Below are positions 3,124-39,611 of a stretch of 64,000 bases of DNA, piece after piece. The DNA lies in IMG/VR virus record IMGVR_UViG_3300041955_000884, positions 43,198 through 107,197 of that record; one strand, written 5' to 3'. How positions within the stretch are numbered: the first letter of the stretch is position 1; each line of letters begins with the position of its first letter. A program made the position numbers and the translations under genes. A model generated the notes under the pieces. The model was not told where the DNA came from. It was given only the letters and a program-made list of their open reading frames with translations, and searched no databases. This stretch comes from a virus.

Positions 3124-3815
3124 CAATCGGCTGCCAGTTTCAAGACCGCAGCCCCTTGCCTGTCTCTCCTGTCGAGGACGCGCCGGAACACATCGAGGAC
3201 GAGGTCGTCCCCGTAGTTCGCGAGCGCTCTGTTCAGAATCCAAATGACCAGGCGGCAGTTGCTCTGCGTGTACGGACCGCCGGGATTGATGCGGTCGATT
3301 GAGGGAGAGAACGGCGACCACCGGCCTTCTCGGCGGAATTCGAGGCCAGACATTTCACAGGTCCCACGCGCAAGACGTTCGTTCATCCACGCTTCGGTGA
3401 GGTCACAGTCTATTCCGGCCTTCCGCGAGCGCTTCTGGACAGCGCGTAGGATATTCCTGCCCCAGTGACGGCTGTAGCTGCGGTTGCAGATGCGCTTGAA
3501 AAAATCTGGATCCTCGGCCAGCTTCTTGGCCTCGTACGCCTCCCGCTTAGCCTTTCCTTCTGGTGATGCGTTCCGGGCGCGCGCGTACTCTGCTCGCTCT
3601 TCCTTGTGCTGGGCCGCCCACTTTCGATTCCTCTCTCGAATCGCATCTGCATTCTTCTCGCGGCTTCGCTTGCTGTACTCCCGCGTCCTCTCGGGACGCT
3701 CGCGCGCCCAGCGGGCGTTTGACTCGCGGCGCTTGTTCCCAGGCTCATGATAAAGCTCGCGGCGGCGCGCTTTCTGAGCTTCCGTGCGCGGTCGGCTAAT
3801 TCGCGGAGTCGCCAT
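3123..3815 (-). CDS. HNH-like homing endonuclease
   Basis: CEMSG...SPSIDRINPGGPYTQSNCRLV; basic helical N-terminus. Confidence 0.75.
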   Translation of the reverse strand: MATPRISRPRTEAQKARRRELYHEPGNKRRESNARWARERPERTREYSKRSREKNADAIRERNRKWAAQHKEERAEYARARNASPEGKAKREAYEAKKLAEDPDFFKRICNRSYSRHWGRNILRAVQKRSRKAGIDCDLTEAWMNERLARGTCEMSGLEFRREGRWSPFSPSIDRINPGGPYTQSNCRLVIWILNRALANYGDDLVLDVFRRVLDRRDRQGAAVLKLAAD

Positions 3816-3819
3816 TCTG

Positions 3820-6800
3820 TTACTCGCTGTCAACGTCGTCCCCGAGCCTAATCGAGGTCACAATCGAAAGCAAGTTCAAGGGGATAGGGGCGGTCTGTTG
3901 GACGGCGATCTGACCACCCGGCTGATTCCAGGCATCAACGACATCACTAAAAACGTCTCCGCTAAAAAGTTCGAAGGGTTGCTGCGGGCTGAGGCTGTTC
4001 GGCGGCTGCTGGAGGCCGGAGAGGTTGGTCCAGGGCACGTTCACTTGGCCCGGCTGCGTCGCGGCATCTGGCTGGTTGGCGCCAATCTCGAACGGGAAGC
4101 CGCTGCCGGCCAGCCGCACCACGGCGCTGTCGATGAGCTTGCGGCGCCCCTGGACGGTCGCCGGGCCTGGGATGTCGAGATAGAGCGTCTGGAGCTGGCA
4201 GGTGAAGCCGAGGCCGACGACAACCTGCGAGGCTGGCTGCGGCAGACTCACAGTGCCGTTCACCACCTTCTGCGGCGCTACCACTACGCCATCAGCAAGG
4301 ATGGAGACCTGATTTCCCTCGAGGTGATTGAGGCCATAGACCGTCAGCACCGGGGCAGTGATGGTCCAGCCGCCAGCTCCTACGGGCACGGCGGTGTTCA
4401 GCGGGTCGTTCGGGATGGACGGCGCGGCGTCGCGCGTCACCTCGGCGATGAGGGTGGTCGAGTTCACGAACTGCTGCACGGTCATCGTCCGGCCGTTCAT
4501 GCGGATGACATCGCCCGGTTCGCCCTGGCCTGGGGCGTTGGCGAAGACGGGCGCGGAGGCGGTCACTGTCGTCAACGGCACCGAGTAGATTTCCACCGCG
4601 GCGTTCCCGCCCGCCCCCGTCGGGTCGATGATGTTGAACGCCGGGGTCGAGTAGCCGTTGATGTTCCCCCCGATGGCCGCCGTGGTGACGATTCCGCCGC
4701 TCACGGTCACGGCCGCGATGCACCCGGAGCCAGTGCCGCTGGTGTCCAGCACTTCCGCGTAGGTTCCGGCCGAGTAGTTGGATCCTCCGTAAAGCACATG
4801 CCCAGGCTGGCCGCCCAACTGAAGCGTGAGAACGCCGGAAGCCGAGGACACCGTGAGCGTGGCATTCGGCGAGTTCTGCGGCAGCGACAGCCCGGCGTCC
4901 ACGCACCATGCGTCCTCCTGGTCGAGCCAAAGGCGGTTGTCCATGCGCTCCTGGAAGTAAGCCCACACCGGGTTGCCGTTGTTCTGGATGAGCCGCTGGA
5001 CGATGAAGTAAGGGGCGTTCACCGGCGGCTCGGACACCACGGCAACGGACTGGAACAACCCGTTGGTGTCATGGCGCGTCCAGGCATAAACGTCCTGTTC
5101 CTTGAGGTACGTCAGGCAGAGCAGGGTGCCGTCGTTTCTGACAGCCCAGATGAGCTTGTTCGGCTCCTCCGCCCAGCCCCACTGCACGATGGTGAAGCCG
5201 TCGAACAGATGGTTCGACAGCACCGTCATGTCCGTGCCGGTGTAGATGTTGACGAAGAAGTTGTAGCTCAAGTCTCTGACGATGCTGCCCTTTTCCTGGA
5301 CGTAGATGATGTCGTAGTTGATGGGAATCGGGGGCACCGTCGGCGAGCAGCCGTTGTACGCCTGCGGGTTCGCCACCTGGTCGGCCGGGGTAATCGCAGC
5401 AGAGGTCGCCAACCCGGAGCCGGCGCCGGACACCTGCCACGCGCCGAGGCCAGTGAAGATGACGAGGCCGCCCGGCATGTTCAGCATCCACAACACGCCG
5501 TTGACCTGCTGGCTCCAGGGCGTGCCGATGATGGCGTCGGAATCCACCACGGGGTCCGACACGTCCATGTTCGTGAACGCGCCCGGCTGGCTCATGTAGT
5601 AGGTTTCGGGGTTGTTCAGCGTGGCGGCATAGACGCGCCGCTGCTGGAAATAGGAGACGACGGACGGGAACGTGCCCGTCGCCGGCCCAATGCTGGTCGT
5701 CGCCGAGGCCCCGCTTCCCGAGCCGGTCCCGTCGCTGATGACGACGGCCTCGCCGCCCGTGTAGCCGGCGCCTGCGGTGTCAACGACAATCCACGCAATC
5801 TCACCGAACAGCGCGCCCCCGACGCCGATCACAACGGGCGTGAGGGCGGCATTCTGGCCGATGGGGCTTGTCACTGTTGCTGTCGTCGCCGTGATGCTGT
5901 AGCTCGCATTGCCCGTTGAGGTCACCGCCACCGCCGTCACCGAGGACGTGGCGAATGGGTTGCTGTGCAGCGGCGGTCCCGTCGAGAAGTCCGGCGTCAC
6001 GTTGGTGTCGGCGAAGGAAGGCCCGAAGGCGGTCCCGATGTAACCGAACAGGATGCCGGCCGACGGCGGCGCACCGTAGGTCGCCGGCCCACCATAGAAG
6101 TTGTAGGAACCGGCATTCGCCACCGTGGCGAGGTTCACCGTGATGGTGCCGGCCTGCGTCGAGATGTCCACCGACGCCGCGATGGCCACCGGGGAGGCAA
6201 TGCTTTCCTCCCCCGTCGAGGCATCAATCGCCGTGCCGCAGAAGGAGTAGTAGAAACTCGGCGTCCCCGCCGACGTGTTCACCACGTAGCTGATGGAGGC
6301 CGGCGGCCCGATGGAGGCCACGAACGAAGTCGTCGTCAGCGTCCAGTTCGAGTCCGTGATGCGGGCGAGGTCCATCGGCGGGTATTCGGCCTGCGTCGCC
6401 TGGTTAACGCACGTCAGGGACATTACGTCCGCAGACTGAGCCCACTTCAGGTCGGGAAGGTCCGCAGCCGCGTAGGGCGTGGCGAGCGTGTAGATGCGCT
6501 CGGCTGTCCCGCCCGAGGTGTATGGGCCTTGACCGAGCGTGCTCACCGTCGTCCCGTCGAGCACGTCAACGAGGGTGAACGTGTTCGTCGTCGTGTTCGA
6601 CACCTCGAAGGAGCGGTTGTTGAGCTGCGGAATCCCGCCGATGCCCTGAAGGAACACCTCGTCGCCATTCACGTAGCCGTGGGCAACGTCGGTCACCACC
6701 GACGGGCTGGCCGACGTCACGTTGGTGATGGTCGAAGCGCTCTCGGTGACATAGCCGCCGTTGATGACGAAGCGGAAATAGTTGTCGCCGGCCTCGATGA

Positions 6801-24421: not shown

Positions 24422-24661
24422 ATGCCTGACGTCCCGTTCTGTCGCGACTGTCGGCACGTCCGAGTACGCGGTTTCTCCCACAAGGACTGGTGCTTTGCAA
24501 AATGCGCCGTCGCGCCGCTGGATCCACCAGCAATCGATATTGTGAGCGGAGAGGTAACGGCGCCACTGCTCCGATATTGCGACTTCGCGAGAAGCGATGT
24601 CGACTCGTGCGGGCCGACTGGCCGCTTTTTCGAACCGCGCCAGAAGCCGGCCGATGCCTGA
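24422..24661 (+). CDS. Small Cys-rich hypothetical protein
   Basis: FCRDCRH...CGPTGRFFEPR. Confidence 0.55.
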   Translation: MPDVPFCRDCRHVRVRGFSHKDWCFAKCAVAPLDPPAIDIVSGEVTAPLLRYCDFARSDVDSCGPTGRFFEPRQKPADA

Positions 24662-26003
24662 CGTTTCGGTCTGGAGCGAGCGGGCGAAGCGCTGGGGCTG
24701 CGGCTGCGTTGACCTGCGGCTGACGCCGGACAGGTTCGATGCTGGCACCAAGATCGAGTGGGATGGCCTCAGCCAGGGGCTTGACCGCGTCGTACCGAGT
24801 GACTTCCACAGCGACAGGCGGCGTATCCTCGATTTCGGCTGTGGCGCTGGGCGGTTCTGCGGCTTCCTCGCGAGCGGCGGCCACCATGATGTCGTCGGAT
24901 ACGATCCCTGCGCCGAACTCATCGCGCTGGCGGAGCCGACGCCGGGCGTGGAGTTTACGACGGAGATGCCGGCTGGGGAATTTGCTCTGGTATGGTGCTT
25001 CGCCGTCCTCGGCGGCCTGACGGATGCGCAGCTCCCCGAGGCGGCCAGCCAAATCGCGGGGGCGCTGGCGCCGAACGGCACGCTGTTCCTGGCAGAGAAT
25101 ACCGACACGACGGCCTATCAGCGCGGGATATGGCGCATCCGGCCAGATGCGCAGTACGCGGAGTGCTTCAAGGCGGTCGGCGTCGGGCTGGCGGCCATCG
25201 GCGTGCACAGCTCCGGCGGCGCCGACACGACGATGTTCTGCGGGAAGCGTACCACGGGGACGATGGAAATCACCATTGACAATCGTGGGGTCAAGCGGCC
25301 GTTTTTCTGCCGCTGCGGGACATCGGACCAGAACGTGATGAACCAGGTGCTTAGATCGCGGGATCTGGACCTGGAGACGCTGAAGCGCTGGCCGGACATC
25401 GAGCGGTGGCTACAGGCGCATCCGAAGCCCCTCATCGTAGATGCCGGGGCGAACGTCGGGGCGGCATCGGTGTGGTTCGCGCTGAAGTACCCGCAGGCGC
25501 GGATTGTCGCCATTGAACCGGAGCCGTCGAACTTCGCCATGTTGGTGAGGAACGTCATGGGCCTCCGGGTCGAAGTATTCGAAACCGCGCTCCAGGGGCG
25601 CCCTGGATACGTCTCGCTGTTTCACCCGACGGGCGATCCCGTCGATGGCATGGGCCACGCCGCCTTCAGGACGCGCCCGGCGGATTCGTCGTTTGATCCG
25701 CGACGCGTCGGCGGTTCCGTCGCGGGAATTACGATGGAGTGGCCGCTTGTGCTTCCTGGCGTGACGCCCTTCATCGCCAAGCTCGACATCGAGGGCGCCG
25801 AGTCGGACGTGTTCTCCGGCGACACCTCGTGGATCAGCCGCTTCCCGGTGCTCATCGTCGAACTGCACGACGGCATCTATCCAGGGGAGCGGCTATCGCA
25901 GTCCTTCCTCAAGGCCGTGGCGCCCCTGGACAGGGACTTCGTGGTGAGGGGGGAACGGGTGTTCTCGATCGCCAATTGGCTGGGGAGAGAGCCGTGCCGA
26001 TAG
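24654..26003 (+). CDS. Two-domain SAM methyltransferase (class I + FkbM family)
   Basis: ILDFGCGAG in the N-domain; IVDAGANVG, AIEP and KLDIEGAE in the C-domain. Confidence 0.85.
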   Translation: MPDVSVWSERAKRWGCGCVDLRLTPDRFDAGTKIEWDGLSQGLDRVVPSDFHSDRRRILDFGCGAGRFCGFLASGGHHDVVGYDPCAELIALAEPTPGVEFTTEMPAGEFALVWCFAVLGGLTDAQLPEAASQIAGALAPNGTLFLAENTDTTAYQRGIWRIRPDAQYAECFKAVGVGLAAIGVHSSGGADTTMFCGKRTTGTMEITIDNRGVKRPFFCRCGTSDQNVMNQVLRSRDLDLETLKRWPDIERWLQAHPKPLIVDAGANVGAASVWFALKYPQARIVAIEPEPSNFAMLVRNVMGLRVEVFETALQGRPGYVSLFHPTGDPVDGMGHAAFRTRPADSSFDPRRVGGSVAGITMEWPLVLPGVTPFIAKLDIEGAESDVFSGDTSWISRFPVLIVELHDGIYPGERLSQSFLKAVAPLDRDFVVRGERVFSIANWLGREPCR

Positions 26004-32410: not shown

Positions 32411-33376
32411 TCACGGTGCTCCCGTAACACTAACCGCCTTCGTGCCGAGGAGGCGCCAAGCGCCCTGCCAGAAGGCGCAGAGCTCGAGCAGGTAGTCTCC
32501 CGCTGGCAGCGCGAACACAGCCTCGCCAGCCGTGCCGTACGCCGCGGCGTAGCTGATGCCGCTCACCGGCCTTCCGTTCCAGTAGCCCTTCCCGGCGGCG
32601 TCGAGCACGTTGACGCATGACCAGTCCCCGCCGGTGTCCGTCCAGACGAGCATCAACAGGCCGAGGATAGCGGAGCCGACGGTTATGGTTCCGGTCGGGT
32701 AGCCGAGCGCGGCCCCCACGATGGGATCCAGCGTGGCGAACATCGCCTGAGCCATCAGGTCGTAGCCGGATTGATTCGGATGGATGCCACTCCAGACGTT
32801 GAACATCTCAGAGTAGGACAGATCGGCGTGCCATGCGGCGCCCATCGCCTCCGTCTCGGCGTTGAAGTCAACGAGCGAAAGGCCAGCCGCCTGAGCGGCG
32901 CCGCGAACCATGGCCGCTTTGTCGTCGATGACGGCCGAGGCCCACGACGCATCGACCGCGTTCGGCGTCTCCAGCACGAGGCGCTTGCCAGCGGCCTGCG
33001 TGAGACGGACGATCTCGGCCAGCGGCGCCTGTACAGCCGCCGGCTCGTCGTTCATGCCGAGCGACAGCAGGACGACCGAGGCTGGAGTCGCGGCGACATA
33101 TGCCAGCCAGGAGTTCGCCACGCCGCCGGTGCCATCGAGCCAGTTCTGGAAAGTCGTTCCCGATACCCCGTTGTTGTTGACGACCACCAGCGGCCCGTAT
33201 TTCGCCTGGAGAAGCGCCCCAAGACCAGCCGGTGCTGGCGTCGCCACGACCGAGGAAACCGTGCCGTCGGCGCCGGGGGCCGGACCCGTGCTGGCGCCGT
33301 CGAACGTCAGCCCGAAAACCGTGCTGTCGCCATTGACGTCAACGACGAGGGGACTCGATGCGCTAGATTCGGTCAC
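32411..33376 (-). CDS. SGNH/GDSL hydrolase
   Basis: GDST, GVSG, GMND and GIHPNQSGY blocks. Confidence 0.8.
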   Translation of the reverse strand: MTESSASSPLVVDVNGDSTVFGLTFDGASTGPAPGADGTVSSVVATPAPAGLGALLQAKYGPLVVVNNNGVSGTTFQNWLDGTGGVANSWLAYVAATPASVVLLSLGMNDEPAAVQAPLAEIVRLTQAAGKRLVLETPNAVDASWASAVIDDKAAMVRGAAQAAGLSLVDFNAETEAMGAAWHADLSYSEMFNVWSGIHPNQSGYDLMAQAMFATLDPIVGAALGYPTGTITVGSAILGLLMLVWTDTGGDWSCVNVLDAAGKGYWNGRPVSGISYAAAYGTAGEAVFALPAGDYLLELCAFWQGAWRLLGTKAVSVTGAP

Positions 33377-33978
33377 GGAGCCAACTCCACGTTGTGATAC
33401 AGCCACGAAGCAAAATCCGCGCGTGTCTCGCTGTCAAGGAACTCCAGCCCGGCCCTGAGCAGCTCCGCCGTCGTCGGCTGCCGCGGCGGCTTCAGCGGCC
33501 GCAGGGGGGTGCCCTTCTTGCCGGAGTAGTTCGCTGGCCGGTCACGCTTCTCGACGTTGCACCTCACGCAGCAGCTCAGGATGTTGTCCCACACCGTCTG
33601 GCCGCCAGCCGCCCGCGGGATAACGTGGTCAAACGTCAGATCCTCGCTCTGGAACCGCTCGCCGCAGTACTGGCAGCGGTAGCGGTCCCGGAGGAGGATG
33701 GAGCGGCGACAGAACTTCGGCGCCGCATTGATTGGCGCGTACGACCGGAGCGCCACCACCTTCGGCACATGAATCGTGGTCGACGGCGAGCGGAACACCT
33801 CCGGCCACTCGTCCACGACGGTCACCGTCTCCTTGAAGACGGCGCGGATGGCTTCCTCGGGGCCGATAAGCGAGAGCGGCCAGGTACTTAACGGCCGAAA
33901 GTCGCTGTTCAGCACGAGACAGCGGCGCGCGTGGCGGTCGCGTCTATCAGGCTCAGCAGTGGCGACGGCGGTGCTCAT
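33373..33978 (-). CDS. HNH endonuclease (McrA-like) directly after the tRNA array
   Basis: LVLNSDFRPL, RDRYRCQYCG, LTFDHVIPRAAGG, CVRCNVEK. Confidence 0.9.
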   Translation of the reverse strand: MSTAVATAEPDRRDRHARRCLVLNSDFRPLSTWPLSLIGPEEAIRAVFKETVTVVDEWPEVFRSPSTTIHVPKVVALRSYAPINAAPKFCRRSILLRDRYRCQYCGERFQSEDLTFDHVIPRAAGGQTVWDNILSCCVRCNVEKRDRPANYSGKKGTPLRPLKPPRQPTTAELLRAGLEFLDSETRADFASWLYHNVELAP

Positions 33979-34018: not shown

Positions 34019-34093
34019 TGGTGCTCTCGGGCAAGAATCGAACTGCCGTTTACCGCTTACGAGGCGGTAGTCCTGCCACTGAACGACGAGAGC
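34019..34093 (-). tRNA. tRNA-Thr(CGT)
   Basis: Acceptor GCTCTCG/CGAGAGC, loop CTCGTAA, encoded CCA. Confidence 0.92.
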
Positions 34094-34096
34094 GTA

Positions 34097-34125
34097 TTGA
34101 GCCGGTTAACTGGCTGCGTTATACT
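34097..34125 (+). promoter_or_regulatory. Sigma70-like promoter for the antisense HNH gene (leaderless)
   Basis: TTGAGC-N17-TATACT, 6 nt before the ATG at 34132. Confidence 0.6.
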
Positions 34126-34131
34126 GCGCCT

Positions 34132-34575
34132 ATGCCCCACCGCACCAAAGAAGAAAATGTCGCTGGCGTCCTAGCATGGCGGCGCCGCGCGAAGCTGCGA
34201 CTTATCGAGGCGTTCGGTGGCGGCTGCGGCATATGCGGATATAACCGCTGCGCCGCTAACATGGCGTTCCATCATCTTGATCCGTCTCAGAAGGGCGTCG
34301 GATTTGGAAGCGCTCAGTCTCGCTCCTGGGCGAAAGTGATACACGAGGTCAGAAAGTGCGTGATGCTGTGCCACAACTGCCACGGCGAATATCATGCCGG
34401 CCTTATCACTGACCTTTCCGCTTGCCCGCGCTTCGATGAAACGTGCGCCACCTACAGCACCCGACCAACGAAAGGGAAGACGCGGAGAACTGGAGGATTG
34501 GGAGGGAATCGAACCCGTCCTATGACGCAGATTAAGAGCCTGCCGGCCTCACCAGAGTGCCAACCAATCCGCTAG
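34132..34575 (+). CDS. HNH endonuclease inserted antisense in the tRNA array
   Basis: GGGCGICGY...FHHLDP...CVMLCHNCHGEYH. Confidence 0.85.
   Translation: MPHRTKEENVAGVLAWRRRAKLRLIEAFGGGCGICGYNRCAANMAFHHLDPSQKGVGFGSAQSRSWAKVIHEVRKCVMLCHNCHGEYHAGLITDLSACPRFDETCATYSTRPTKGKTRRTGGLGGNRTRPMTQIKSLPASPECQPIR
34491..34570 (-). tRNA. tRNA-Lys(CTT)
   Basis: GGATTGG/CCAATCC, loop CTCTTAA, U73, CCA. Confidence 0.85.
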
Positions 34576-34652
34576 TGGTGCATGTCCCGAGATTCGAACT
34601 CGGCCTGTGCGGGATTTGAAGCCGCCGCCTCCTGCCTCTGGGCTAGACATGC
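34576..34652 (-). tRNA. tRNA-Leu(CAA), short variable loop
   Basis: GCATGTC/GACATGC, stem GCGGC/CCCGC, loop TTCAAAT, A73, CCA. Confidence 0.7.
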
Positions 34653-34656
34653 GAAC

Positions 34657-34728
34657 TGGCCTCGCCGCCCGGATTCGAACCGGGAAGCCCAACCTTCGGA
34701 GGGTCGGGTGCAGTCCATTGCCGGCGAG
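34657..34728 (-). tRNA. tRNA-Arg(CCG), atypical compact fold
   Basis: CTCGCCG/CGGCGAG, 7-bp anticodon stem, loop CTCCGAA, CCA. Confidence 0.8.
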
Positions 34729-34732
34729 AAAC

Positions 34733-34803
34733 TGGTGCCCCGTGCAGGGATTCAACCTGCCGTCTTTGGCTTAGAACGCCTAGGCCGTCGCAGCGGACGG
34801 GGC
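34733..34803 (-). tRNA. tRNA-Arg(TCT), atypical compact fold
   Basis: GCCCCGT/ACGGGGC, loop GTTCTAA, CCA. Confidence 0.75.
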
Positions 34804-34808
34804 GAGCA

Positions 34809-34881
34809 TGGACCTCCCGGGACGAATCGGACGCCCTCATCGAGTTTCGTAGACTCAAGTCCGCAATCCAGCGGCGGGAGG
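34809..34881 (-). tRNA. tRNA-Arg(ACG), atypical compact fold
   Basis: CCTCCCG/CGGGAGG, 6-bp anticodon stem, loop CTACGAA, CCA. Confidence 0.8.
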
Positions 34882-34885
34882 AATT

Positions 34886-34960
34886 TGGGGGCGCGTGCGG
34901 GGGTCGAACCCGCCTCTCTCGGGTGAAGGCCGAGGCATCTCGCCGGAAATGTAACGCGCC
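34886..34960 (-). tRNA. tRNA-Glu(TTC), C33
   Basis: GGCGCGT/ACGCGCC, loop CCTTCAC, CCA. Confidence 0.85.
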
Positions 34961-34965
34961 GAAGT

Positions 34966-35040
34966 TGGTGGAGCTGACCGAAGTCGAATCGGTGTTACGA
35001 GACTGCCAGCCTCGCGTCCTTGCCACTGAACGACAGCCCC
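34966..35040 (-). tRNA. tRNA-Ala(GGC)
   Basis: G3:U70 present, loop CTGGCAG, CCA. Confidence 0.92.
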
Positions 35041-35115
35041 GAAGCTGTGGTCGGCGTTTGATGCCTATATCCGCCGACACGCCCCATACATGGCAAGGGC
35101 GGCGCCTCGTCAAAC

Positions 35116-35190
35116 TGGTGAAGGGCGTTGGAATCGAACCAACCGTCTCCGCCATGTCAAGGCGGTGCTCATCCGATAAGCTGGCCCTCC
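35116..35190 (-). tRNA. tRNA-Val(GAC)
   Basis: GGAGGGC/GCCCTTC, loop TTGACAT, CCA. Confidence 0.92.
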
Positions 35191-35262
35191 GTACCTCGCC
35201 GTCGAATCGAACGACGGTATCCGCGGTGTGAACGCGGCGCCCTGCCATTGAGCGAGCGAGGC
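35191..35262 (-). tRNA. tRNA-Val(CAC), CCA not fully encoded
   Basis: GCCTCGC/GCGAGGT, loop TTCACAC; ends A-C and abuts the next tRNA. Confidence 0.88.
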
Positions 35263-35266
35263 AAAG

Positions 35267-35341
35267 TGGTCGGGGATGCAGGAATTGAACCTGCGTCGCC
35301 GCCTTCCAAGGGCGGAACCTGGGCCACTAGGCTAATCCCCG
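35267..35341 (-). tRNA. tRNA-Pro(TGG)
   Basis: C1:G72, A73, loop CTTGGAA, CCA. Confidence 0.9.
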
Positions 35342-35345
35342 TAGA

Positions 35346-35416
35346 TGGCGCCCCCGGCTGAAATCGAATCAGCATTCCTTGGCTTAGGAAGCCAGGGCCG
35401 CTCCATCGGCGGGGGC
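35346..35416 (-). tRNA. tRNA-Arg(CCT), atypical compact fold
   Basis: GCCCCCG/CGGGGGC, loop TTCCTAA, CCA. Confidence 0.8.
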
Positions 35417-35420
35417 AATC

Positions 35421-35498
35421 TGGTCAGCGTGCGGTGATTCGAACACCGGCTCTCGTGCGCCCGAGGCACGCGCTTTGGCCTGGCTAAGCTACACGCTG
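35421..35498 (-). tRNA. tRNA-Pro(CGG)
   Basis: CAGCGTG/CACGCTG, loop CTCGGGC, CCA. Confidence 0.92.
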
Positions 35499-35505
35499 TC
35501 GAAGC

Positions 35506-35581
35506 TGGCGCCCCAGACGGGTTCCGACCCCGCCAACATCGGCTTGACAAGCCGAGACCCCCGCCAGGGAGAATCTGGGGC
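35506..35581 (-). tRNA. tRNA-Asp(GTC)
   Basis: GCCCCAG/CTGGGGC, G73, loop TTGTCAA, T-loop GTCGGAA. Confidence 0.8.
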
Positions 35582-35585
35582 AATC

Positions 35586-35667
35586 TGGAGGACGGCGGAG
35601 GTGACGATCCCCTTGCGGCCGGATTAAAGGTCCGGTCCAGCGCCTCGCTGGTATACGCTCGCCGTCC
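35586..35667 (-). tRNA. tRNA-Lys(TTT), divergent (C33, enlarged D region)
   Basis: GGACGGC/GCCGTCC, stem CCGGA/TCCGG, loop CCTTTAA, T-loop ATCGTCA, CCA. Confidence 0.7.
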
Positions 35668-35672
35668 GAAAG

Positions 35673-35747
35673 TGGTTGCCGCACGCGGTACTGCCCCGCG
35701 AGCCTCTCGCTTATCGGGCGAGCGCACGACTTTCATGCTCTACGGCA
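35673..35747 (-). tRNA. tRNA-Ile(GAT), C33
   Basis: TGCCGTA/TGCGGCA, loop CCGATAA, T-loop GGCAGTA, CCA. Confidence 0.82.
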
Positions 35748-35748
35748 A

Positions 35749-35833
35749 TGGTGAGTTGGTGTGGTGCTGCCCCACGCGCCCGAAGGCGAAGGATTTACAG
35801 TCCTCCTGCCGGAGCTGCCGGCTTTACCAACCC
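35749..35833 (-). tRNA. tRNA-Tyr(GTA)
   Basis: Loop CTGTAAA, variable arm GCC-TTCG-GGC, T-loop GGCAGCA, CCA. Confidence 0.85.
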
Positions 35834-35839
35834 GTGAAC

Positions 35840-35910
35840 TGGAGCCGCGTCTCGGTGTTGCGCCGAGCCTCCGTCCATACCAAGGACGGGTGCAGACTGC
35901 TGCGCGCGGC
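35840..35910 (-). tRNA. tRNA-Thr(GGT), compact fold
   Basis: 6-bp stem CCGTCC/GGACGG, loop TTGGTAT, D arm GCAG-CAGT-CTGC, CCA. Confidence 0.78.
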
Positions 35911-35913
35911 AGA

Positions 35914-36001
35914 TGGTGGAAGGCCCCGAGCACGATTCGGACACCTTTCGGTGCGCACGGTTTAGCAGACCGGCCCCGCAACCTTACGGGCTGTGCCTTC
36001 C
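35914..36001 (-). tRNA. tRNA-Ser(GCT)
   Basis: GGAAGGC/GCCTTCC, loop CTGCTAA, long variable arm, CCA. Confidence 0.85.
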
Positions 36002-36007
36002 AGAAAG

Positions 36008-36097
36008 TGGCGGACGGCGGCTAGTGCTGCCCTGCAAACCCGTTGGGGTCTCATCGGTTTTCGAGGCCGAGCCGCAGACTGCTGCGGGTCACCGTCC
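36008..36097 (-). tRNA. tRNA-Ser(CGA), 8/4 fold
   Basis: 8-bp acceptor GGACGGTG/CGCCGTCC, loop CTCGAAA, long variable arm, G73, CCA. Confidence 0.82.
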
Positions 36098-36209
36098 ATG
36101 TGCGCTCCAGCGCACTGTATCGCGGCTAATGTGCTCTTGAGAGCCGATTTTGCGGGCGCCGCATTCGCTGCGGTCGTTCAAGACTGGAGGCGGAGGCCAG
36201 CCCCCATAG

Positions 36210-36297
36210 TGGCGGAGAGCGGGCGCGCACGATGCCCATGCCTTGCGGCACCAGCCGGGTTCAAACCGGCGGTCGGAACCTTCCGACTTCACTCTCC
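36210..36297 (-). tRNA. tRNA-Ser(TGA), 8/4 fold
   Basis: 8-bp acceptor GGAGAGTG/CGCTCTCC, loop TTTGAAC, long variable arm, G73, CCA. Confidence 0.85.
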
Positions 36298-36301
36298 GTA
36301 A

Positions 36302-36389
36302 TGGCGGGCGGCGGGCGCAGTCGAAGCCCTGGCCTTTCGGCCTCATCGCGCTTCCAACGCGAGCCGGCGACCCCGCCGGTTCACCGCCC
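36302..36389 (-). tRNA. tRNA-Ser(GGA), 8/4 fold
   Basis: 8-bp acceptor GGGCGGTG/CGCCGCCC, loop TTGGAAG, long variable arm, G73, CCA. Confidence 0.85.
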
Positions 36390-36393
36390 AAAC

Positions 36394-36478
36394 TGGTAGC
36401 CCACGAAGGAGTTGCACCCTCACGCCGCGATGGCACGAGTTCCTAAGACTCGCGTGTCTGCTGTTCCACCAGTGGGCC
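36394..36478 (-). tRNA. tRNA-Leu(TAG)
   Basis: Loop CTTAGGA, long variable arm, A73, CCA. Confidence 0.9.
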
Positions 36479-36483
36479 TAACT

Positions 36484-36567
36484 TGGTACGCCCGGGGAGA
36501 GTTGCACTCCCACGTCATGCGACACAACGCCCTCAACGTTGCGCGTCTGCTGTTCCGCCACGGGCGC
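36484..36567 (-). tRNA. tRNA-Leu(GAG)
   Basis: Loop TTGAGGG, long variable arm, A73, CCA. Confidence 0.9.
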
Positions 36568-36568
36568 T

Positions 36569-37078
36569 CTATTTCGGTGCTGGCCAAATGTCGGCCAGGG
36601 TCGGACGACGCTCGCCGAGGACGAGCGACAGCCTGGATTTCGAGTGCGCTGGCGCTAGGCGGTCGAGCCGTTGCGCAGGCTGGGGCACATTGGCCAACGT
36701 CGCCTCCGAGATCGGCTCGGCATATTGGCCAATCTTGTGCAGGCCCCAGGACGCCGCGACGTGGAATTCGGGCTTGCGGGAGCCAGACGGACCCGGCTTC
36801 GCCACTGCTCTGACGCACGCCACCGCGCCCCAGCAGTGGCCGCAGGCGGCGCGGAGGTTGTTGCAGTGCCCGCAGACGAGGTGGTGCATTCTCGTGCCCG
36901 TGGGATACTCGTAGCGCCTCGTGCGCGGCAGGATGTGGTCCCGCGTGGCGCTCCGCTTGGCGTGGCCCTCGGGCAGCATCGGGTCGCCGCACTGGGGGCA
37001 GCAGACGGTCTCGCCCATCGCCTTCGCGAGGTCGAACAGGAGCAGCTTCCTCTTCGTGAAGCCCTGCGGCGCGCTCAT
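36569..37078 (-). CDS. HNH-like endonuclease within the tRNA array
   Basis: CPQCG...ATRDHILPR...VCGHCNNLR; leaderless promoter TTGCCT-N16-TAGGCT upstream. Confidence 0.75.
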   Translation of the reverse strand: MSAPQGFTKRKLLLFDLAKAMGETVCCPQCGDPMLPEGHAKRSATRDHILPRTRRYEYPTGTRMHHLVCGHCNNLRAACGHCWGAVACVRAVAKPGPSGSRKPEFHVAASWGLHKIGQYAEPISEATLANVPQPAQRLDRLAPAHSKSRLSLVLGERRPTLADIWPAPK

Positions 37079-37116
37079 GGCGGAAGCCTACCACGCTCGG
37101 CGCCGGAGGCAAGATG

Positions 37117-37200
37117 TGGTGCCGGCGGCAGGCATCGAACCTGCACGCTGCGCGCGGCCCGGTTTAAGCGGGCTGGGTCTACCGATTCCCCCACGCCGGC
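37117..37200 (-). tRNA. tRNA-Leu(TAA)
   Basis: GCCGGCG/CGCCGGC, loop CTTAAAC, long variable arm, CCA. Confidence 0.9.
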
Positions 37201-37203
37201 GAT

Positions 37204-37278
37204 TGGTGGCGCTAGGGGGATTTGAACCCGCCCTTTCCCGGTTGAGAGCCGAGCGGCCTGCCAATAGCCGATAGCGCC
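37204..37278 (-). tRNA. tRNA-Glu(CTC)
   Basis: GGCGCTA/TAGCGCC, loop CTCTCAA, CCA. Confidence 0.9.
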
Positions 37279-37282
37279 GAAA

Positions 37283-37357
37283 TGGAAGCGGGTGCCCGAC
37301 TCGAACGAGCGTGAAGGAGGTCAAAGCTCCCCGTCCTGGCCGCTGAACGAACCCGCC
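37283..37357 (-). tRNA. tRNA-Gln(TTG)
   Basis: G1:U72 weak first pair, loop CTTTGAC, CCA. Confidence 0.88.
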
Positions 37358-37362
37358 GCGAT

Positions 37363-37467
37363 TGGTAGGCGATGACGGTGCCGACCCGTCTCGAACGCCG
37401 CCAGTGCGTAAGGGACCGTCGCCCCCTGGGCCGTCGCCCGCGTTCTGCCCAGCCGGGGCAATCGCCT
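37363..37467 (-). ncRNA. tRNA-like RNA with the anticodon loop replaced by a 41-nt branched domain
   Basis: Acceptor AGGCGAT/ATCGCCT-A-CCA, D arm and T arm intact, stem GAACGC/GCGTTC closing three hairpins. Confidence 0.75.
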
Positions 37468-37505
37468 GCCGAGTTTCTAGCACGTCACATCCGATACCGC
37501 AATAG

Positions 37506-37579
37506 TGGAAGCCGACCAAGGTGTCGAGCCTTGCCCGACGAGCTTCAGAGGCTCGCGTGCCCAGCCGGGGCGATCGGCC
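37506..37579 (-). tRNA. tRNA-Gln(CTG), compact fold
   Basis: GGCCGAT/GTCGGCT, 1-nt linker, loop CTCTGAA, CCA. Confidence 0.8.
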
Positions 37580-37582
37580 GAA

Positions 37583-37661
37583 TGGTGCTCCTGGCCGCGA
37601 TTCGAACGGGCGACCCCCGGGATACAAAGCCGGTGCTCTGGCCAGACTGAGCTACAGGAGC
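37583..37661 (-). tRNA. tRNA-Thr(TGT)
   Basis: GCTCCTG/CAGGAGC, canonical D arm, loop TTTGTAT, CCA. Confidence 0.9.
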
Positions 37662-37662
37662 T

Positions 37663-37739
37663 TGGGGTGACATGCCGGTACCGCCCCGGCCCAAACTGGG
37701 CTCACAACCCAGCGCAATCGCTTGCCTGCCCATGTCACC
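37663..37739 (-). tRNA. tRNA-His(GTG) with G-1:C73
   Basis: G-GTGACAT/ATGTCAC-C-CCA, loop TTGTGAG. Confidence 0.88.
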
Positions 37740-37751
37740 ATACGCAATCCA

Positions 37752-38130
37752 TCCCGTCGCATCTATGCTCGCCTCGGTGTTACCCGTGGCTAGCCGTATC
37801 GCACGGCGAACGGGAGCCGGGGCTACCGTCTGTTTCAACGGTGTCGCCGGAGAGGTTTCGAGCCGGCATCGCTATGCTACGGCGGCATCGAAGACGGCTT
37901 GCCGCCGGCGGAGGGGTTAATCCCGCGCATCACCACCCTGGGTCGGGCTCCGCAATCCCCTGATGACTTAGCCGCTTCGCCGCCGGTTCCATGCCCAGCG
38001 CCGCTCGAAAGCTCCCTGCGGGCTAGCCTCGGCGCGCATCCGAAGCCAAGCTGGGCCAGCCTTAGAACCACCGCAGCGCTGGCCCGTCGCCCGCGTGGAA
38101 GGCTTCGCGTCTGTCCGCGATGCCGCAGGA
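37752..38130 (-). ncRNA. Candidate ~380-nt structured RNA between tRNA-Cys and tRNA-His
   Basis: Ends pair (TCCTG-CG-GCATC / GATGC-GA-CGGGA); many hairpins; no credible ORF. Confidence 0.55.
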
Positions 38131-38133
38131 AGG

Positions 38134-38209
38134 TGGAGAAGCGCCACAGAGTCGAACTGCGTGATGCGGGGTTGCAATCCGCCACCCAAGGCCGTCGGGT
38201 TCGCGCTTC
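38134..38209 (-). tRNA. tRNA-Cys(GCA)
   Basis: U73, loop TTGCAAC, CCA. Confidence 0.88.
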
Positions 38210-38214
38210 AATCT

Positions 38215-38288
38215 TGGCAGGGGCGTGAGGAATTGGACCCCATCTAGCTGGGTTGGAGCCAGCCGTGCTGCCGTAACACTTCGCCCCC
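38215..38288 (-). tRNA. tRNA-Trp(CCA)
   Basis: G73, loop CTCCAAC, CCA. Confidence 0.88.
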
Positions 38289-38292
38289 AAGT

Positions 38293-38367
38293 TGGCTCCA
38301 GAGGCAGGACTTGAACCTGCAACCTCACGGTTAACGGCCGTTTGCTCAGCCATTGAGCTACTCTGGA
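38293..38367 (-). tRNA. tRNA-Asn(GTT), C33
   Basis: TCCAGAG/CTCTGGA, G73, loop CCGTTAA, CCA. Confidence 0.92.
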
Positions 38368-38486
38368 AAACTCGTCTGGCGCTCGGCCCTCTCGGGCCAG
38401 ACTTTCCGGGCTACCCACCAGCGCGTTGCCATGGCTCGCTGGCCTCTATCCGTTATGGACTCGGGGTGACCGAGTCACGCCATGCT

Positions 38487-38562
38487 TGGAGCGGGATGCC
38501 GGGGACGATCCGAGCTTCACTGGTTTGGAAGACCAGCACAGTTACCGAACTGCAAATCCCGC
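38487..38562 (-). tRNA. tRNA-Gly(TCC)
   Basis: GCGGGAT/ATCCCGC, U73, loop CTTCCAA, CCA. Confidence 0.87.
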
Positions 38563-39137
38563 GAAATGGTGCCAGCGCCTGGTTTCGCGCCAGGGTCTTC
38601 GCTTTTTCGGAGCGACGCTTCCACTAGGTTAGCTTCGCTGGCCATTGGCAGGGAAGTCCACGCCTTGCCGAGCTTGATGCGGCTTATCATGTCCTCCGTC
38701 ACGCGAAAACTTGTTGCTATCGAACGGCCAGTTCGGCCAGATGCCAGGAAGCGGCGAATCTCATGCACATCACGCTCCGACAGCTTAGCGTTTCCATTTG
38801 ACGCCCCCACGGAGGGCGGCAGGTTGCCCTTCGGGCGACGCCCCTTCCTGGCACTGTCCCGCATATTTTCGGCGTTCGTTCCGAGCCACAGGTGACGCGG
38901 ATTGCAGCAGGGCGGGTTGTCGCAAGAATGGCAGACGCAAAGGCCGCAGGTCGGTCCCTTCGCTATCTCGTAAGCGACGGCATGTGCCCGCCGAGAGCGG
39001 AGCGTTGGCCTGCTTTGCTTGAACCGACCGTACCCGTCATCGTCAATCTGGCGAGTCCACGGCCAGCACTCGTCAGGCCCGCGGATGTCAACCTTTGACC
39101 AAAAGCGCGCAATCGCCTTATCGTCGTGAATAGCCAT
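38517..39137 (-). CDS. HNH homing endonuclease with C-terminal HTH; the frame runs through tRNA-Phe
   Basis: RFWSKVD...ECWPW...CHSCDNPPCCNPRHLWLGTNAENMRD; SD GAGGAG. Confidence 0.88.
   Translation of the reverse strand: MAIHDDKAIARFWSKVDIRGPDECWPWTRQIDDDGYGRFKQSRPTLRSRRAHAVAYEIAKGPTCGLCVCHSCDNPPCCNPRHLWLGTNAENMRDSARKGRRPKGNLPPSVGASNGNAKLSERDVHEIRRFLASGRTGRSIATSFRVTEDMISRIKLGKAWTSLPMASEANLVEASLRKSEDPGAKPGAGTISRDLQFGNCAGLPNQ
38567..38642 (-). tRNA. tRNA-Phe(GAA), C33
   Basis: GCCAGCG/CGCTGGC, loop CCGAAAA, T-loop CGCGAAA, CCA. Confidence 0.87.
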
Positions 39138-39235
39138 ATCGGCCGTCTCCTCGGCTGGCGTGGTCAGGACCGCCGGGGCGTTCACAGCGCTCCGGCGGCC
39201 CGAGATTTCTAGTCGAAATGTCCAGCCGAAGCAAT

Positions 39236-39307
39236 TGGTTGCAGGGGAGCGAGTCGCACGCTCTGTGGAAAATTTATGAGACTTTCTGGCCTCTGAGGCT
39301 CCCTGCA
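39236..39307 (-). tRNA. tRNA-Met(CAT), compact fold
   Basis: TGCAGGG/CCCTGCA, 1-nt linker, 6-bp anticodon stem, loop CTCATAA, CCA. Confidence 0.75.
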
Positions 39308-39312
39308 ATAAC

Positions 39313-39386
39313 TGGTGGGCGCGCGACGAATCGGACGCCGGTCAAGCCTTTATGAGAGGCTCGCTCTTCCATTGAGCTACACGCCC
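39313..39386 (-). tRNA. tRNA with CAT anticodon (probably Ile2/lysidine; Met not excluded)
   Basis: GGGCGTG/CGCGCCC, loop CTCATAA, no initiator features, CCA. Confidence 0.82.
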
Positions 39387-39399
39387 GTCGCGTGGAATT

Positions 39400-39474
39400 T
39401 GGAGCTGACGCCCGGTACCGCCCCGGGTGATACTGATTGGCAACCAGTCCCGCAACCTTTCGCGGACCGCCAGC
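39400..39474 (-). tRNA. tRNA-Gly(GCC)
   Basis: U73, loop TTGCCAA, T-loop GGCGGTA, CCA. Confidence 0.83.
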
Positions 39475-39485
39475 TAAGACATGAA

Positions 39486-39531
39486 CGAATCTCGCCCGAC
39501 CTGGCGACGACACGGCCAGGTCGGGCATTCG
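39486..39531. other. Strong hairpin spacer between tRNA-Ala and tRNA-Gly
   Basis: Perfect 12-bp stem GCCCGACCTGGC/GCCAGGTCGGGC plus CGAAT/ATTCG. Confidence 0.6.
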
Positions 39532-39536
39532 TGAAA

Positions 39537-39611
39537 TGGTGGAGGCGCGGATAGTCGAAATCCGAGACAGCAATCTTGCAAGGATAGCCCGCTGGTCCGC
39601 AGCTCGCCCCC
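39537..39611 (-). tRNA. tRNA-Ala(TGC), compact fold; first tRNA of the array
   Basis: G3:U70, 1-nt linker, loop CTTGCAA, CCA. Confidence 0.83.

Follow-up and report, generated by a model that had tools for sequence, protein, structure and literature searches.

Matched substitutions across the tRNA elbow in a phage tRNA cassette, probably arising by compensatory evolution

A tRNA cassette in an uncultivated phage carries matched substitutions throughout the tRNA elbow, and we consider it probable that this mobile cassette encodes mostly functional tRNAs whose elbows have stayed intact through compensatory evolution, with no proven role in counter-defence. Within the window, the 64,000-nucleotide stretch of viral DNA analysed here (IMG/VR record IMGVR_UViG_3300041955_000884), G18·U55 appears to have been exchanged for A18·G55 in ten tRNAs, G19-C56 for C19-G56 in one, U54·A58 for A54·U58 in four and for G54·G58 in six, and U8·A14 for G8·G14 in three. 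A18·G55 is an alternative solution within the same architecture and would be isosteric with G18·U55. We infer that cassettes which evolve fast and are exchanged horizontally most likely acquired these pairs by compensatory evolution; variants would spread inside arrays by duplication or conversion, in tolerant virus–host systems. There are also implications for modification. Judging from enzyme chemistry, tRNAs with A18/G55 could receive neither pseudouridine-55 (TruB) nor Gm18 (TrmH), and those in which nucleotide 54 is not U could not receive m5U54 (TrmA).

The cassette spans positions 34019-39611 on the minus strand, extending past the interval 34733-39474 given in an earlier, sequence-only reading, and comprises 39 tRNA genes and a single tRNA-like element (40 in total; Table 1). 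All 20 amino acids are represented, CAT is the sole anticodon present twice, and CCA is encoded by nearly all of the tRNA genes. ARAGORN detected 25 tRNAs and Rfam 13-15 at gathering score, the remainder being recovered by parsing and a cloverleaf scan anchored on CCA. With few exceptions, the candidates show 7/7 acceptor pairs, 5/5 T-stem pairs and canonical anticodon loops. The T loop is consensus in 19/40 genes and non-consensus in 21/40. The phage is about 107 kb in size and comes from wetland and peat. Because independent DNA runs from wetland and peat yielded contigs that match the cassette with zero differences, its sequence is real and an assembly artefact is ruled out; the identical sequence occurs across metagenomes of different studies. 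The stretch was also found in two metatranscriptome libraries, although RNA-library contigs may derive from DNA. The reading frame of the internal HNH endonuclease ORF overlaps tRNA-Phe, and DNA similar to the 169-aa ORF sits ~1 kb from the sole tRNA-Met of a relative (G001).

Table 1 Cassette features discussed in the text, with window coordinates
Feature	Position	Strand	T loop	D loop or D arm	Other	Detection
HNH endonuclease ORF, downstream cassette edge	33373..33978	-			Pfam HNH_5 and HNH	
tRNA-Arg(TCT)	34733..34803	-	TTGAATC	CTGCGA	C19-G56	
tRNA-Arg(ACG)	34809..34881	-	TCCGATT (C55)	CCG-CTGGATTG-CGG	no 8-9 linker	
tRNA-Arg(CCT), comparator paralogue	35346..35416	-	TTCGATT	ATGGAG	G19-C56	ARAGORN, CCA-anchored scan
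tRNA-Asp(GTC)	35506..35581	-	GTCGGAA (G54/G58, U55)	with GG		
tRNA-Lys(TTT)	35586..35667	-	ATCGTCA (A54/U58)	aberrant region (6-bp hairpin)	C33	
tRNA-Ile(GAT)	35673..35747	-	GGCAGTA	GAAAGTC	G8, G14	
tRNA-Tyr(GTA)	35749..35833	-	GGCAGCA	GGCAGCTCC		
tRNA-Thr(GGT)	35840..35910	-	CGCAACA (C54 G55)	short arm with CAGTC		
tRNA-Ser(GCT)	35914..36001	-	ATCGTGC (A54/U58)			
tRNA-Ser(CGA)	36008..36097	-	motif GGCAGCA	AGCAGTCT		Rfam, parse, hand-read
tRNA-Ser(TGA)	36210..36297	-	ATCGTGC (A54/U58)		T arm irregular	
tRNA-Leu(TAG)	36394..36478	-	TGCAACT (G55)	AACAGCAG		ARAGORN, parse
tRNA-Leu(GAG)	36484..36567	-	TGCAACT (G55)	AACAGCAG (A18 G19)		ARAGORN, parse
169-aa ORF within cassette	36569..37078	-			without family match	
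tRNA-Leu(TAA), consensus-elbow comparator	37117..37200	-	TTCGATG	AATCGGTAG		ARAGORN, Rfam, parse
tRNA-like element, 108 nt	37363..37470	-	GTCGGCA (T arm GACGG-GTCGGCA-CCGTC)		7-bp acceptor-like stem, ACCA end; anticodon arm not clear	
tRNA-Gln(CTG)	37506..37579	-	CTCGACA (C54)	reduced arm		ARAGORN, parse
tRNA-His(GTG)	37663..37738	-	GGCGGTA	GCAAGCGA (A18 G19)	G8, G14	ARAGORN, parse
tRNA-Trp(CCA)	38215..38288	-	TCCAATT (C55)			ARAGORN, parse
tRNA-Gly(TCC)	38487..38562	-	ATCGTCC (A54/U58)			ARAGORN, parse
HNH endonuclease ORF within cassette	38517..39137	-			Pfam HNH_3, E = 4.7e-7	
tRNA-Phe(GAA)	38567..38642	-	CGCGAAA (C54 G55)	with CTAGTG		
Second CAT tRNA	39236..39307	-	TGCGACT (G55)	reduced arm (4-bp stem, CAG loop)	U1-A72	CCA-anchored scan, parse
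tRNA-Met(CAT)	39313..39386	-	TCCGATT (C55)	AATGGAA		ARAGORN, Rfam, parse
tRNA-Gly(GCC)	39400..39474	-	GGCGGTA (G54 G55 G58)	GAAAGGTT	G8, G14	also structure-only scan

The ten tRNAs listed with G55 in the sequence-only reading are all genuine, and in their D loops AG, with a pyrimidine after it, stands where GG is expected. In this window, GG is absent from the 18/19 slot in 8/10 G55 tRNAs versus 1/29 others (Fisher p = 6e-6), and the single exception without G55, tRNA-Arg(TCT), is compensated by G56. The D loop of tRNA-Phe, previously ambiguous, is settled by an orthologue in the syntenic array L083/L084: the L083 gene has the same CTAGTG motif, no GG and G55 (GTGCTAGTGCA with TGCGATC). The His orthologue in L083/L084 has GCCAGCA with GACCAGCGGA, the odd architecture of the second CAT tRNA is the same in L083, with compensatory stem changes, and the Leu(GAG) type is seen again in 36 other viral Leu tRNAs. 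tRNA-Leu(TAA) has a consensus elbow here, unlike its L084 orthologue, which is of the A18/G55 type.

Other elbow contacts have also changed. The proposed C19-G56 swap in tRNA-Arg(TCT) was confirmed by its paralogues Arg(CCT) and Arg(ACG), both of which retain G19-C56; an alternative 4-bp D-stem pairing for Arg(TCT) is possible but inconsistent with these paralogues. A54/U58 proved correct for Gly(TCC), Ser(GCT), Ser(TGA) and Lys(TTT), as did G54/G58 for Ile, Tyr, Ser(CGA), His, Gly(GCC) and Asp. Additional to the changes first listed are C55 in Met (39313-39386), Trp and Arg(ACG), C54 in Phe, Thr(GGT) and Gln(CTG), G8 with G14 in Gly(GCC), His and Ile, and the 108-nt tRNA-like element with its T loop GTCGGCA.

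The earlier proposal that paired changes preserve tertiary structure gains strong support from a larger alignment of 505 unique tRNAs from 28 viral arrays and from the syntenic orthologous array, in which covariation became stronger rather than being lost. D loops without GG occur in 158/185 G55 tRNAs versus 14/271 U55 tRNAs (p = 3e-75, or p = 1e-57 for the association with the anchor Leu tRNAs removed), and an alignment-free comparison of 7-nt D loops finds A at loop position 4 (nucleotide 18) in 36/37 G55 tRNAs and G in 69/72 U55 tRNAs (p = 4e-28), all of these p-values being inflated by sequence relatedness. Moreover, A54/T58 was observed 21 times versus 1.4 expected, G54/G58 10 times versus 0.4, and G8/G14 16 times versus 2.8; at the 19-56 pair, U56 accompanies A19, A56 accompanies U19 and G56 accompanies C19 or U19. 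In L083/L084, all 8/8 orthologue pairs that differ at nucleotide 55 show the matching D-loop switch, and 54/58 is swapped relative to this array in five orthologue pairs; the L084 orthologue of Gly(TCC), for example, has the T loop TTCGAGT. Covariation in the larger set, together with these orthologue switches, thus indicates that the elbow is preserved, and most cassette genes are probably functional tRNAs, as judged from their sequences.

Some members are structurally doubtful and count against this explanation, namely Ser(CGA) in its T stem, Lys(TTT) in its D region and the 108-nt element. A 5-bp T stem is impossible in Ser(CGA), which forms 2-3 pairs there and may be defective; in Ser(TGA) and Ser(GGA), the T stem is either 4 bp long, closing a 9-nt loop, or ends in a mismatched closing pair. 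If the non-consensus genes were pseudo-tRNAs gathering mutations in a redundant cassette, these three aberrant members would be expected, as would Rfam scores above threshold for just 13-15 of about 40 genes. Such decay is nevertheless very improbable: the changes come in pairs and not at random, stems are intact, orthologues carry the variants again together with compensatory changes, the cassette duplicates only one anticodon, and its sequence is unchanged between metagenomes of different studies.

A18/G55 tRNAs are found in many uncultivated phage tRNA cassettes (GC range 39-68%). In arrays fished by the A18-type Leu D arm, with detection mostly by ARAGORN, G55 occurs in 142/386 non-Leu tRNAs, versus 0/150 tRNAs in control viral arrays, frequencies that describe this sample and are not population estimates; single arrays reach 24/25 and 26/27 G55 tRNAs. 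Among cellular genomes, the sole Leu(TAA), Cys and Ile(GAT) tRNAs of an Omnitrophota metagenome-assembled genome (MAG) are all A18/G55, the Ile(GAT) gene lying between 16S and 23S rRNA, and one candidate-phyla-radiation (CPR) MAG has five such tRNAs. Sampling with the Leu D-arm pattern gave 2/61 positive CPR genomes and 1/201 Planctomycetota genomes, the latter being the centre genome, and the class-I D-arm pattern occurred in 5/61 Omnitrophota and 0/81 Acidobacteriota genomes. A literature search found no paper describing or naming an A18-G55 pair. Because it recurs in other uncultivated phage clusters and a few bacteria, the A18/G55 elbow is a variant of tRNA architecture that works. Its two-peaked distribution does not easily fit a purely neutral cause, and its concentration in some cassettes (up to 26/27) and absence from controls (0/150) mean that there may be a lineage-specific cause; sparse cellular occurrence also counts against compensatory evolution as the full explanation.

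An alternative explanation would be host matching, with variant tRNAs taken from, or adapted to, a putative host lineage that itself uses the A18/G55 elbow. Single-copy core genes of this type in Omnitrophota and CPR MAGs, an identical Leu D arm in phage and cellular versions, and strongly array-dependent usage are consistent with this idea. Yet sampled cellular genomes have at most about five such tRNAs each, whereas some phage arrays are almost all G55; the Acidobacteriota and Planctomycetota samples yielded almost no carriers; and arrays spanning 39-68% GC imply many hosts. We regard host matching as quite unlikely.

The suggestion in the sequence-only reading that these tRNAs changed in order to evade host tRNases or toxins is unsupported here. 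Against escape as a necessary explanation, single-copy cellular tRNAs, including a tRNA-Ile in a 16S-23S spacer, use the same A18/G55 elbow, and the elbow type flips between orthologues of related arrays. More broadly, an alternative elbow could resist a putative nuclease or toxin that reads the canonical T loop or elbow, whether this agent serves to defend the host or is turned by the phage on host tRNAs, so that the phage pool continues translation as the host pool is destroyed. Sequence changes do let phage tRNAs evade anticodon nucleases (PMC10264068, PMC11555353), a T-loop-cutting tRNase exists (PMC9086364), and the tRNA set of this phage serves all 20 amino acids; the concentration of the variant in some phage cassettes, its absence from control cassettes and its sporadic cellular occurrence also fit. 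Against this stand core cellular tRNAs with the same elbow, G55 in just 10/40 window genes alongside 19/40 consensus T loops, an elbow type that does not mark fixed isoacceptors, and published evasion cases confined to the anticodon loop; an eLife paper on phage tRNA evasion mentions neither T loop, D loop nor elbow. We consider this possibility unlikely, and compensatory evolution remains our preferred reading.

Cultured phages provide parallels for the cassette itself. Streptomyces phage Comrade, Arthrobacter phage Racecar, Rhodobacter phage RcXuper and bacteriophage DSS3_MAL1 likewise have large, dense one-strand tRNA arrays in which HNH homing endonuclease ORFs are interspersed, and CCA is often encoded in cultured clusters, as here. 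A few A54/U58 T loops also occur in cultured phages, such as those of Racecar Lys(TTT) and RcXuper His with ATCGTTA. By contrast, G55 is absent from tRNAs parsed out of cultured or annotated phage records, and this cassette differs from the cultured arrays in its 21/40 non-consensus T loops, 10 with A18/G55. Evasion of anticodon nucleases by phage tRNAs has been described by van den Berg et al. 2023 (PMC10264068) and Azam et al. 2024 (PMC11555353). Those tRNAs likewise depart from the host-type consensus and keep their decoding, but they either differ in the anticodon loop or provide the tRNA species under attack, and the tests involved named defence systems, whereas the change here is at the elbow and shared with cellular tRNAs. 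The CdiA-CT E479 tRNase of Burkholderia pseudomallei cleaves the T loop (reviewed in PMC9086364), showing that the conserved T-loop nucleotides altered in this cassette can be the target of a toxin, but it acts between bacteria and not as a defence against phages. Finally, eukaryotic tRNA-Ala and initiator tRNAs carry A54 (PMC7566577), and tRNA-Pyl and mitochondrial tRNAs also depart from the canonical elbow (PMC7609411, PMC2777451), so ‘invariant’ positions are likewise replaced in functional tRNAs. Those departures concern one tRNA species or organelles only and often lose D-loop/T-loop contacts. Here, by contrast, the T loop keeps its 7 nt and the 19-56 pair is retained, both partners of 18·55 change together in nearly all amino-acid families, and the setting is phages and some bacteria.

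Scanning for cloverleaves with an encoded CCA, an acceptor stem of 7 bp and a T stem of 5 bp as anchors, and parsing each candidate, gave 39 tRNA genes in the cassette together with one tRNA-like element of 108 nt. Nearly all candidates have 7/7 acceptor and 5/5 T-stem pairs together with the encoded CCA, the anticodon CAT occurs twice and every other anticodon once, and all 20 amino acids are served. By the criteria of a 7-bp acceptor stem, a directly stacked 5-bp T stem with a 7-nt loop, and a 5-bp anticodon stem with a 7-nt loop, U33 and a purine at position 37, 36-37 of the 40 candidates are proper cloverleaves. The exceptions are Ser-CGA, for which no proper T stem can be formed; Ser-GGA and Ser-TGA, with irregular T arms; Lys-TTT, with C33 and an aberrant D region; and the 108-nt element. 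Judged by their sequences, most of the genes are probably functional.

The consensus bacterial elbow has G18 and G19 in the D loop and U54 U55 C56 R57 A58 in the T loop. In the window, 21/40 candidates have a non-consensus T loop, and ten combine A18 with G55. These ten (Gly-GCC, the second CAT tRNA, Phe, His, Leu-GAG, Leu-TAG, Ser-CGA, Thr-GGT, Tyr and Ile-GAT) are the G55 tRNAs named in the sequence-only reading; their T loops are of three types (GGCRGYA, TGCRACT and CGCRAMA) and, as that reading had also claimed, their D loops read AG and then a pyrimidine at the GG slot. Within the window alone, GG is missing at the 18/19 slot in 8/10 G55 tRNAs vs 1/29 others (p = 6e-6). The sole tRNA of the latter kind is Arg-TCT, whose D loop CTGCGA and T loop TTGAATC had been taken to form C19-G56, an assignment borne out by comparison with its paralogues Arg-CCT (ATGGAG with TTCGATT) and Arg-ACG (CTGGATTG with TCCGATT). 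The proposed A54/U58 (Gly-TCC, Ser-GCT, Ser-TGA, Lys-TTT) and G54/G58 (Ile, Tyr, Ser-CGA, His, Gly-GCC, Asp) combinations were likewise found, and to these we add three C55 tRNAs, three C54 tRNAs and G8 with G14 in Gly-GCC, His and Ile.

Relatives of the phage recognized by their portal proteins (89-90% and 66-67% identity) lack the cassette, one of them, G001, having a single tRNA-Met, and related arrays were therefore sought in IMG/VR by Leu D-arm sequence alone, with the T loop left free. This search gave 68 matches, 37 of them Leu tRNAs of many anticodons, and a TGCRA T loop (G55) is present in 36 of the 37; the matched loci hold 27 further tRNA arrays of 9-39 genes each, and the gene order of the window array recurs in loci L083 and L084. 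In the pooled sample of 505 unique tRNAs from 28 arrays, the D loop lacks GG in 158/185 G55 vs 14/271 U55 tRNAs, an association (odds ratio ~107, p = 3e-75; p = 1e-57 with the Leu anchor removed) whose p values, like the others for covariation, are inflated by relatedness of the sequences. An alignment-free check, limited to D loops that measure exactly 7 nt and are flanked by 4-bp stems, with loop positions 4 and 5 taken as nt 18 and 19, found A18 in 36/37 G55 and G18 in 69/72 U55 tRNAs (p = 4e-28), with G19 in both classes alike. At 19-56 every compensated state was seen (U56 with A19, A56 with U19, G56 with C19 or U19), and observed counts exceed expectation for A/T (21 vs 1.4) and G/G (10 vs 0.4) at 54·58 and for G/G at 8·14 (16 vs 2.8).

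Contrasts between orthologues, and the range of amino-acid families involved, provide a better argument, at the level of sequence comparison, that many independent switches may have occurred. In the syntenic array, 8/8 orthologue pairs that differ at nt 55 show a matching D-loop difference and 54/58 is swapped in five pairs; each of the 20 amino-acid families sampled includes G55, with a single case each in Asp and Ser. The covariation proposed in the sequence-only reading thus persists in the larger alignment, and the 18·55, 19-56 and 54·58 tertiary pairs should be able to form, with A18·G55 and G54·G58 presumably geometrically equivalent to the pairs they replace. Decay, by which the non-consensus genes would be degenerating copies, is very improbable as their cause; we rejected tRNA pseudogenes because the stem and loop changes are compensated and recur in relatives, with Ser-CGA a possible exception.

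Use of the variant elbow is strongly array-dependent. Among viral loci fished with the consensus (GG) Leu D arm, G55 occurs in 2/269 unique tRNAs and in 0/150 within the 11 arrays of this control set, whereas arrays fished with A18-type Leu have G55 in 142/386 non-Leu tRNAs (G55 plus U55) and range from 39 to 68% GC. Some cassettes are nearly completely of the A18/G55 type: L079 (24/25; an IMG/VR contig of 172 kb) and L094 (26/27; one of 120 kb) have T loops that are mostly TGCGAAT or TGCGAGT, and L076 (17/20) and L113 (19/24) are similar. None of the sampled cellular genomes comes near this level. Among tRNAs parsed from cultured or annotated phage records there is no G55 and few have A54/U58; in blastn searches against cultured phages, the whole array matched a consensus tRNA-Asn only and the variant Leu tRNAs matched only Leu tRNAs with the consensus elbow. 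Such array dependence is not predicted by neutral drift alone. It could have arisen, with no selection for evading defences, by inheritance from a shared ancestral cassette, by conversion within arrays or through a permissive host factor.

The same elbow occurs, sparsely, in cells. Scanning one genome per prokaryotic species for the same Leu D-arm pattern showed that MAGs of Patescibacteria, Omnitrophota and others carry Leu tRNAs of the A18/G55 form. The Leu type was found in the centre genome only among 201 Planctomycetota and in 2/61 Patescibacteria, and the class-I A18 D-arm pattern in 0/81 Acidobacteriota and 5/61 Omnitrophota (once per genome). From two MAGs we extracted the tRNA sets. 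In the Omnitrophota MAG, the only Leu-TAA, Cys-GCA and Ile-GAT tRNAs present are of the A18/G55 form, and the tRNA-Ile gene lies between the 16S and 23S rRNA genes, adjoining tRNA-Ala; the CPR MAG has five A18/G55 and four C55 tRNAs. These tRNAs indicate that core cellular translation functions with the alternative elbow, and their presence in bacterial MAGs rules out a phage invention. TruB gave a mixed picture in cellular lineages with A18/G55: two MAGs have it, and it was not found in two others, both incomplete. Host matching, in which the phage elbow would follow that of a host, seems to us an improbable cause of the alternative elbow.

Standard tools recover only part of the cassette. 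ARAGORN with default settings reports 25 minus-strand tRNAs of about 40, and 13 tRNAs pass the Rfam gathering threshold in a whole-window search and 15 in a sensitive search. Among the 21 tRNAs with non-consensus T loops, RF00005 passes are limited to one Met tRNA and Trp (both C55) and to Phe (C54/G55), the last in the sensitive search only, at 45 bits; none of the other nine G55 tRNAs reaches this model. Five tRNAs score under the Sec model only, below its threshold: Gly-TCC, Ser-GCT and Ser-CGA, which are T-loop variants, and Lys-CTT and Glu-TTC, which have the consensus T loop. The alternative elbow would explain why standard tRNA finders overlook many phage tRNAs, as in this window; A18/G55 is by itself no bar to Rfam detection, because the cellular A18/G55 tRNA-Ile scores 63.6 bits.

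The window is the final 64 kb of a single virus record of 107,197 bp (65.5% GC; CheckV completeness 94%). Its products include a tail protein, a large terminase and a portal or adaptor protein, and the portal shares ~34% identity with portals of epsilon15-like phages. Metagenomes of wetland, peat, lake water and soil from ~20 studies contain DNA near-identical to the tRNA region, and two independent DNA runs yielded contigs with zero differences from it, so the unusual tRNA genes are not assembly errors. The region is also present in two metatranscriptome libraries, which may contain DNA and whose contigs span parts of the array only, with gaps and depth that are not interpretable. The cassette looks mobile: the same tRNA order sits in contigs (77-83% complete) in which the window portal was not found, and five array-bearing records (77-89% complete), those of the syntenic-array phages among them, were searched for this portal without a match. 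Where the portal is 89-90% identical, the phages carry a single tRNA-Met at the place corresponding to the cassette. HNH endonuclease ORFs lie inside and beside the array. No viral relatives were found for a 169-aa ORF inside the cassette or for the DUF4326 protein, the neighbouring-protein route to related arrays led to exonuclease relatives without tRNAs nearby, and a promoter and terminator scan of the minus strand gave nothing useful. We found no TruB or SpoU/TrmH family protein encoded in the 107-kb phage genome.

Several other tRNAs are unusual in architecture (see table). Bacterial tRNA-Leu is class II; Leu-anticodon tRNAs with a class-I body occur in the window and in L084, where Leu-GAG and Leu-CAG also have this body and a 5-nt variable loop. 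Streptomyces phage Comrade and Arthrobacter phage Racecar carry the same short CAA tRNA, which bears the annotation tRNA-Leu there. In Arg-ACG, Arg-TCT and Arg-CCT, CCG is followed by a 6-8-nt loop, CGG and then 1-2 nt up to the anticodon stem; the D arm of Arg-CCG is GCA-AUGGAC-UGC. In the syntenic array, the CAT tRNA whose D loop has 3 nt retains its architecture, with compensatory changes in all stems, and may be a special Met or Ile2-type tRNA.

Positions and character of features in the window and in related loci
Feature	Position	Strand	Description
tRNA cassette	34019-39611	minus	
tRNA with Leu anticodon	34576-34652	minus	class-I body, 5-nt variable loop, 77-79 nt
Its L084 counterpart	3917-3993		class-I body, 5-nt variable loop, 77-79 nt
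Four Arg tRNAs	34657-34881, 35346-35416	minus	71-73 nt overall; unusual core, D stem adjoins acceptor stem, 8-9 linker absent
tRNA-like element	37363-37470	minus	perfect 7-bp acceptor-like stem, ACCA end, T-arm loop GTCGGCA; D-arm-like hairpin shared with neighbouring tRNA-Gln(CTG); branched insert in place of anticodon arm
tRNA-free stretch	37739-38133	minus	~395 nt, no convincing ORF
tRNA-free stretch	38368-38486	minus	~119 nt, no convincing ORF; stable predicted fold, -47.7 kcal/mol
HNH ORF	38517-39137	minus	frame open through entire tRNA-Phe into tRNA-Gly(TCC); gene end overlaps tRNA
tRNA-Phe	38570-38642 (Rfam match)	minus	C54/G55
CAT tRNA	39236-39307	minus	U1-A72, 4-bp D stem, 3-nt CAG loop, G55
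CAT tRNA of L083	2945-3016		U1-A72, 4-bp D stem, 3-nt CAG loop, G55
tRNA-Met	39313-39386	minus	C55; passes RF00005
468-aa protein	24597-26003	plus	two methyltransferase domains (Methyltransf_23/25 and FkbM); weak PHROG match to family annotated tRNA methyltransferase (E = 4e-5)
tRNA of L136 (Terriglobia MAG, 3.3-Mb contig)	3484-3580		Leu-type A18/G55 body, 26-nt variable arm, TGG (Pro) anticodon

The cloverleaves are intact and the elbow changes paired, and the pairing rule holds across hundreds of tRNAs, cellular ones included. Thus, the part of the sequence-only reading in which paired changes preserve the elbow stands; its proposed escape from tRNases or toxins gained no support here. Compensated evolution tolerated within certain lineages is probably the cause and is the likeliest of those considered. 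That counter-defence or orthogonality drove the change is unlikely, even though T-loop positions of the genes depart from the bacterial consensus and a T-loop-cleaving tRNase, CdiA-CT E479, exists (PMC9086364): cellular tRNAs use this variant too, G55 is limited to a quarter of the window tRNAs, and the elbow type flips between orthologues. Evasion of anticodon nucleases by phage tRNAs is known and concerns the anticodon loop only (PMC10264068, PMC11555353).

We likewise consider it doubtful that the A18·G55 elbow, with or without G54·G58 or A54·U58, is a phage-selected orthogonal tRNA architecture to which some uncultivated phages have converted part or nearly all of a complete set. Were this so, the phage tRNAs would evade whatever factor recognizes the canonical elbow or T loop, such as a host tRNase or toxin, a phage-encoded nuclease that depletes host tRNA, or modification-dependent surveillance, and the phage would have a tRNA pool of its own for translation. 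The concentration of the variant in some cassettes and its absence from others makes such an architecture, directed against nucleases, testable against tolerated drift.

More broadly, A18·G55 represents a second covarying solution for the 18·55 pair, with clean compensation at 19-56, 54·58 and 8·14, and provides direct comparative evidence on allowed elbow geometries. U55 (pseudouridine-55) and G18 are regarded as near-universal in non-organellar tRNAs. These nucleotides are the targets of TruB and TrmH, and established enzyme chemistry implies no pseudouridine at G55, no Gm at A18 and no TrmA-dependent m5U where nt 54 is not U; a tRNA class that works without pseudouridine-55, Gm18 or m5U54 is thus predicted. 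Phage tRNA arrays and covariation of tertiary pairs are already known. In the searchable literature we came across no account of A18/G55, U55G/G18A or elbow changes in phage tRNA, and by that measure the systematic A18·G55 elbow, its distribution and the existence of nearly fully converted phage cassettes appear to be new.
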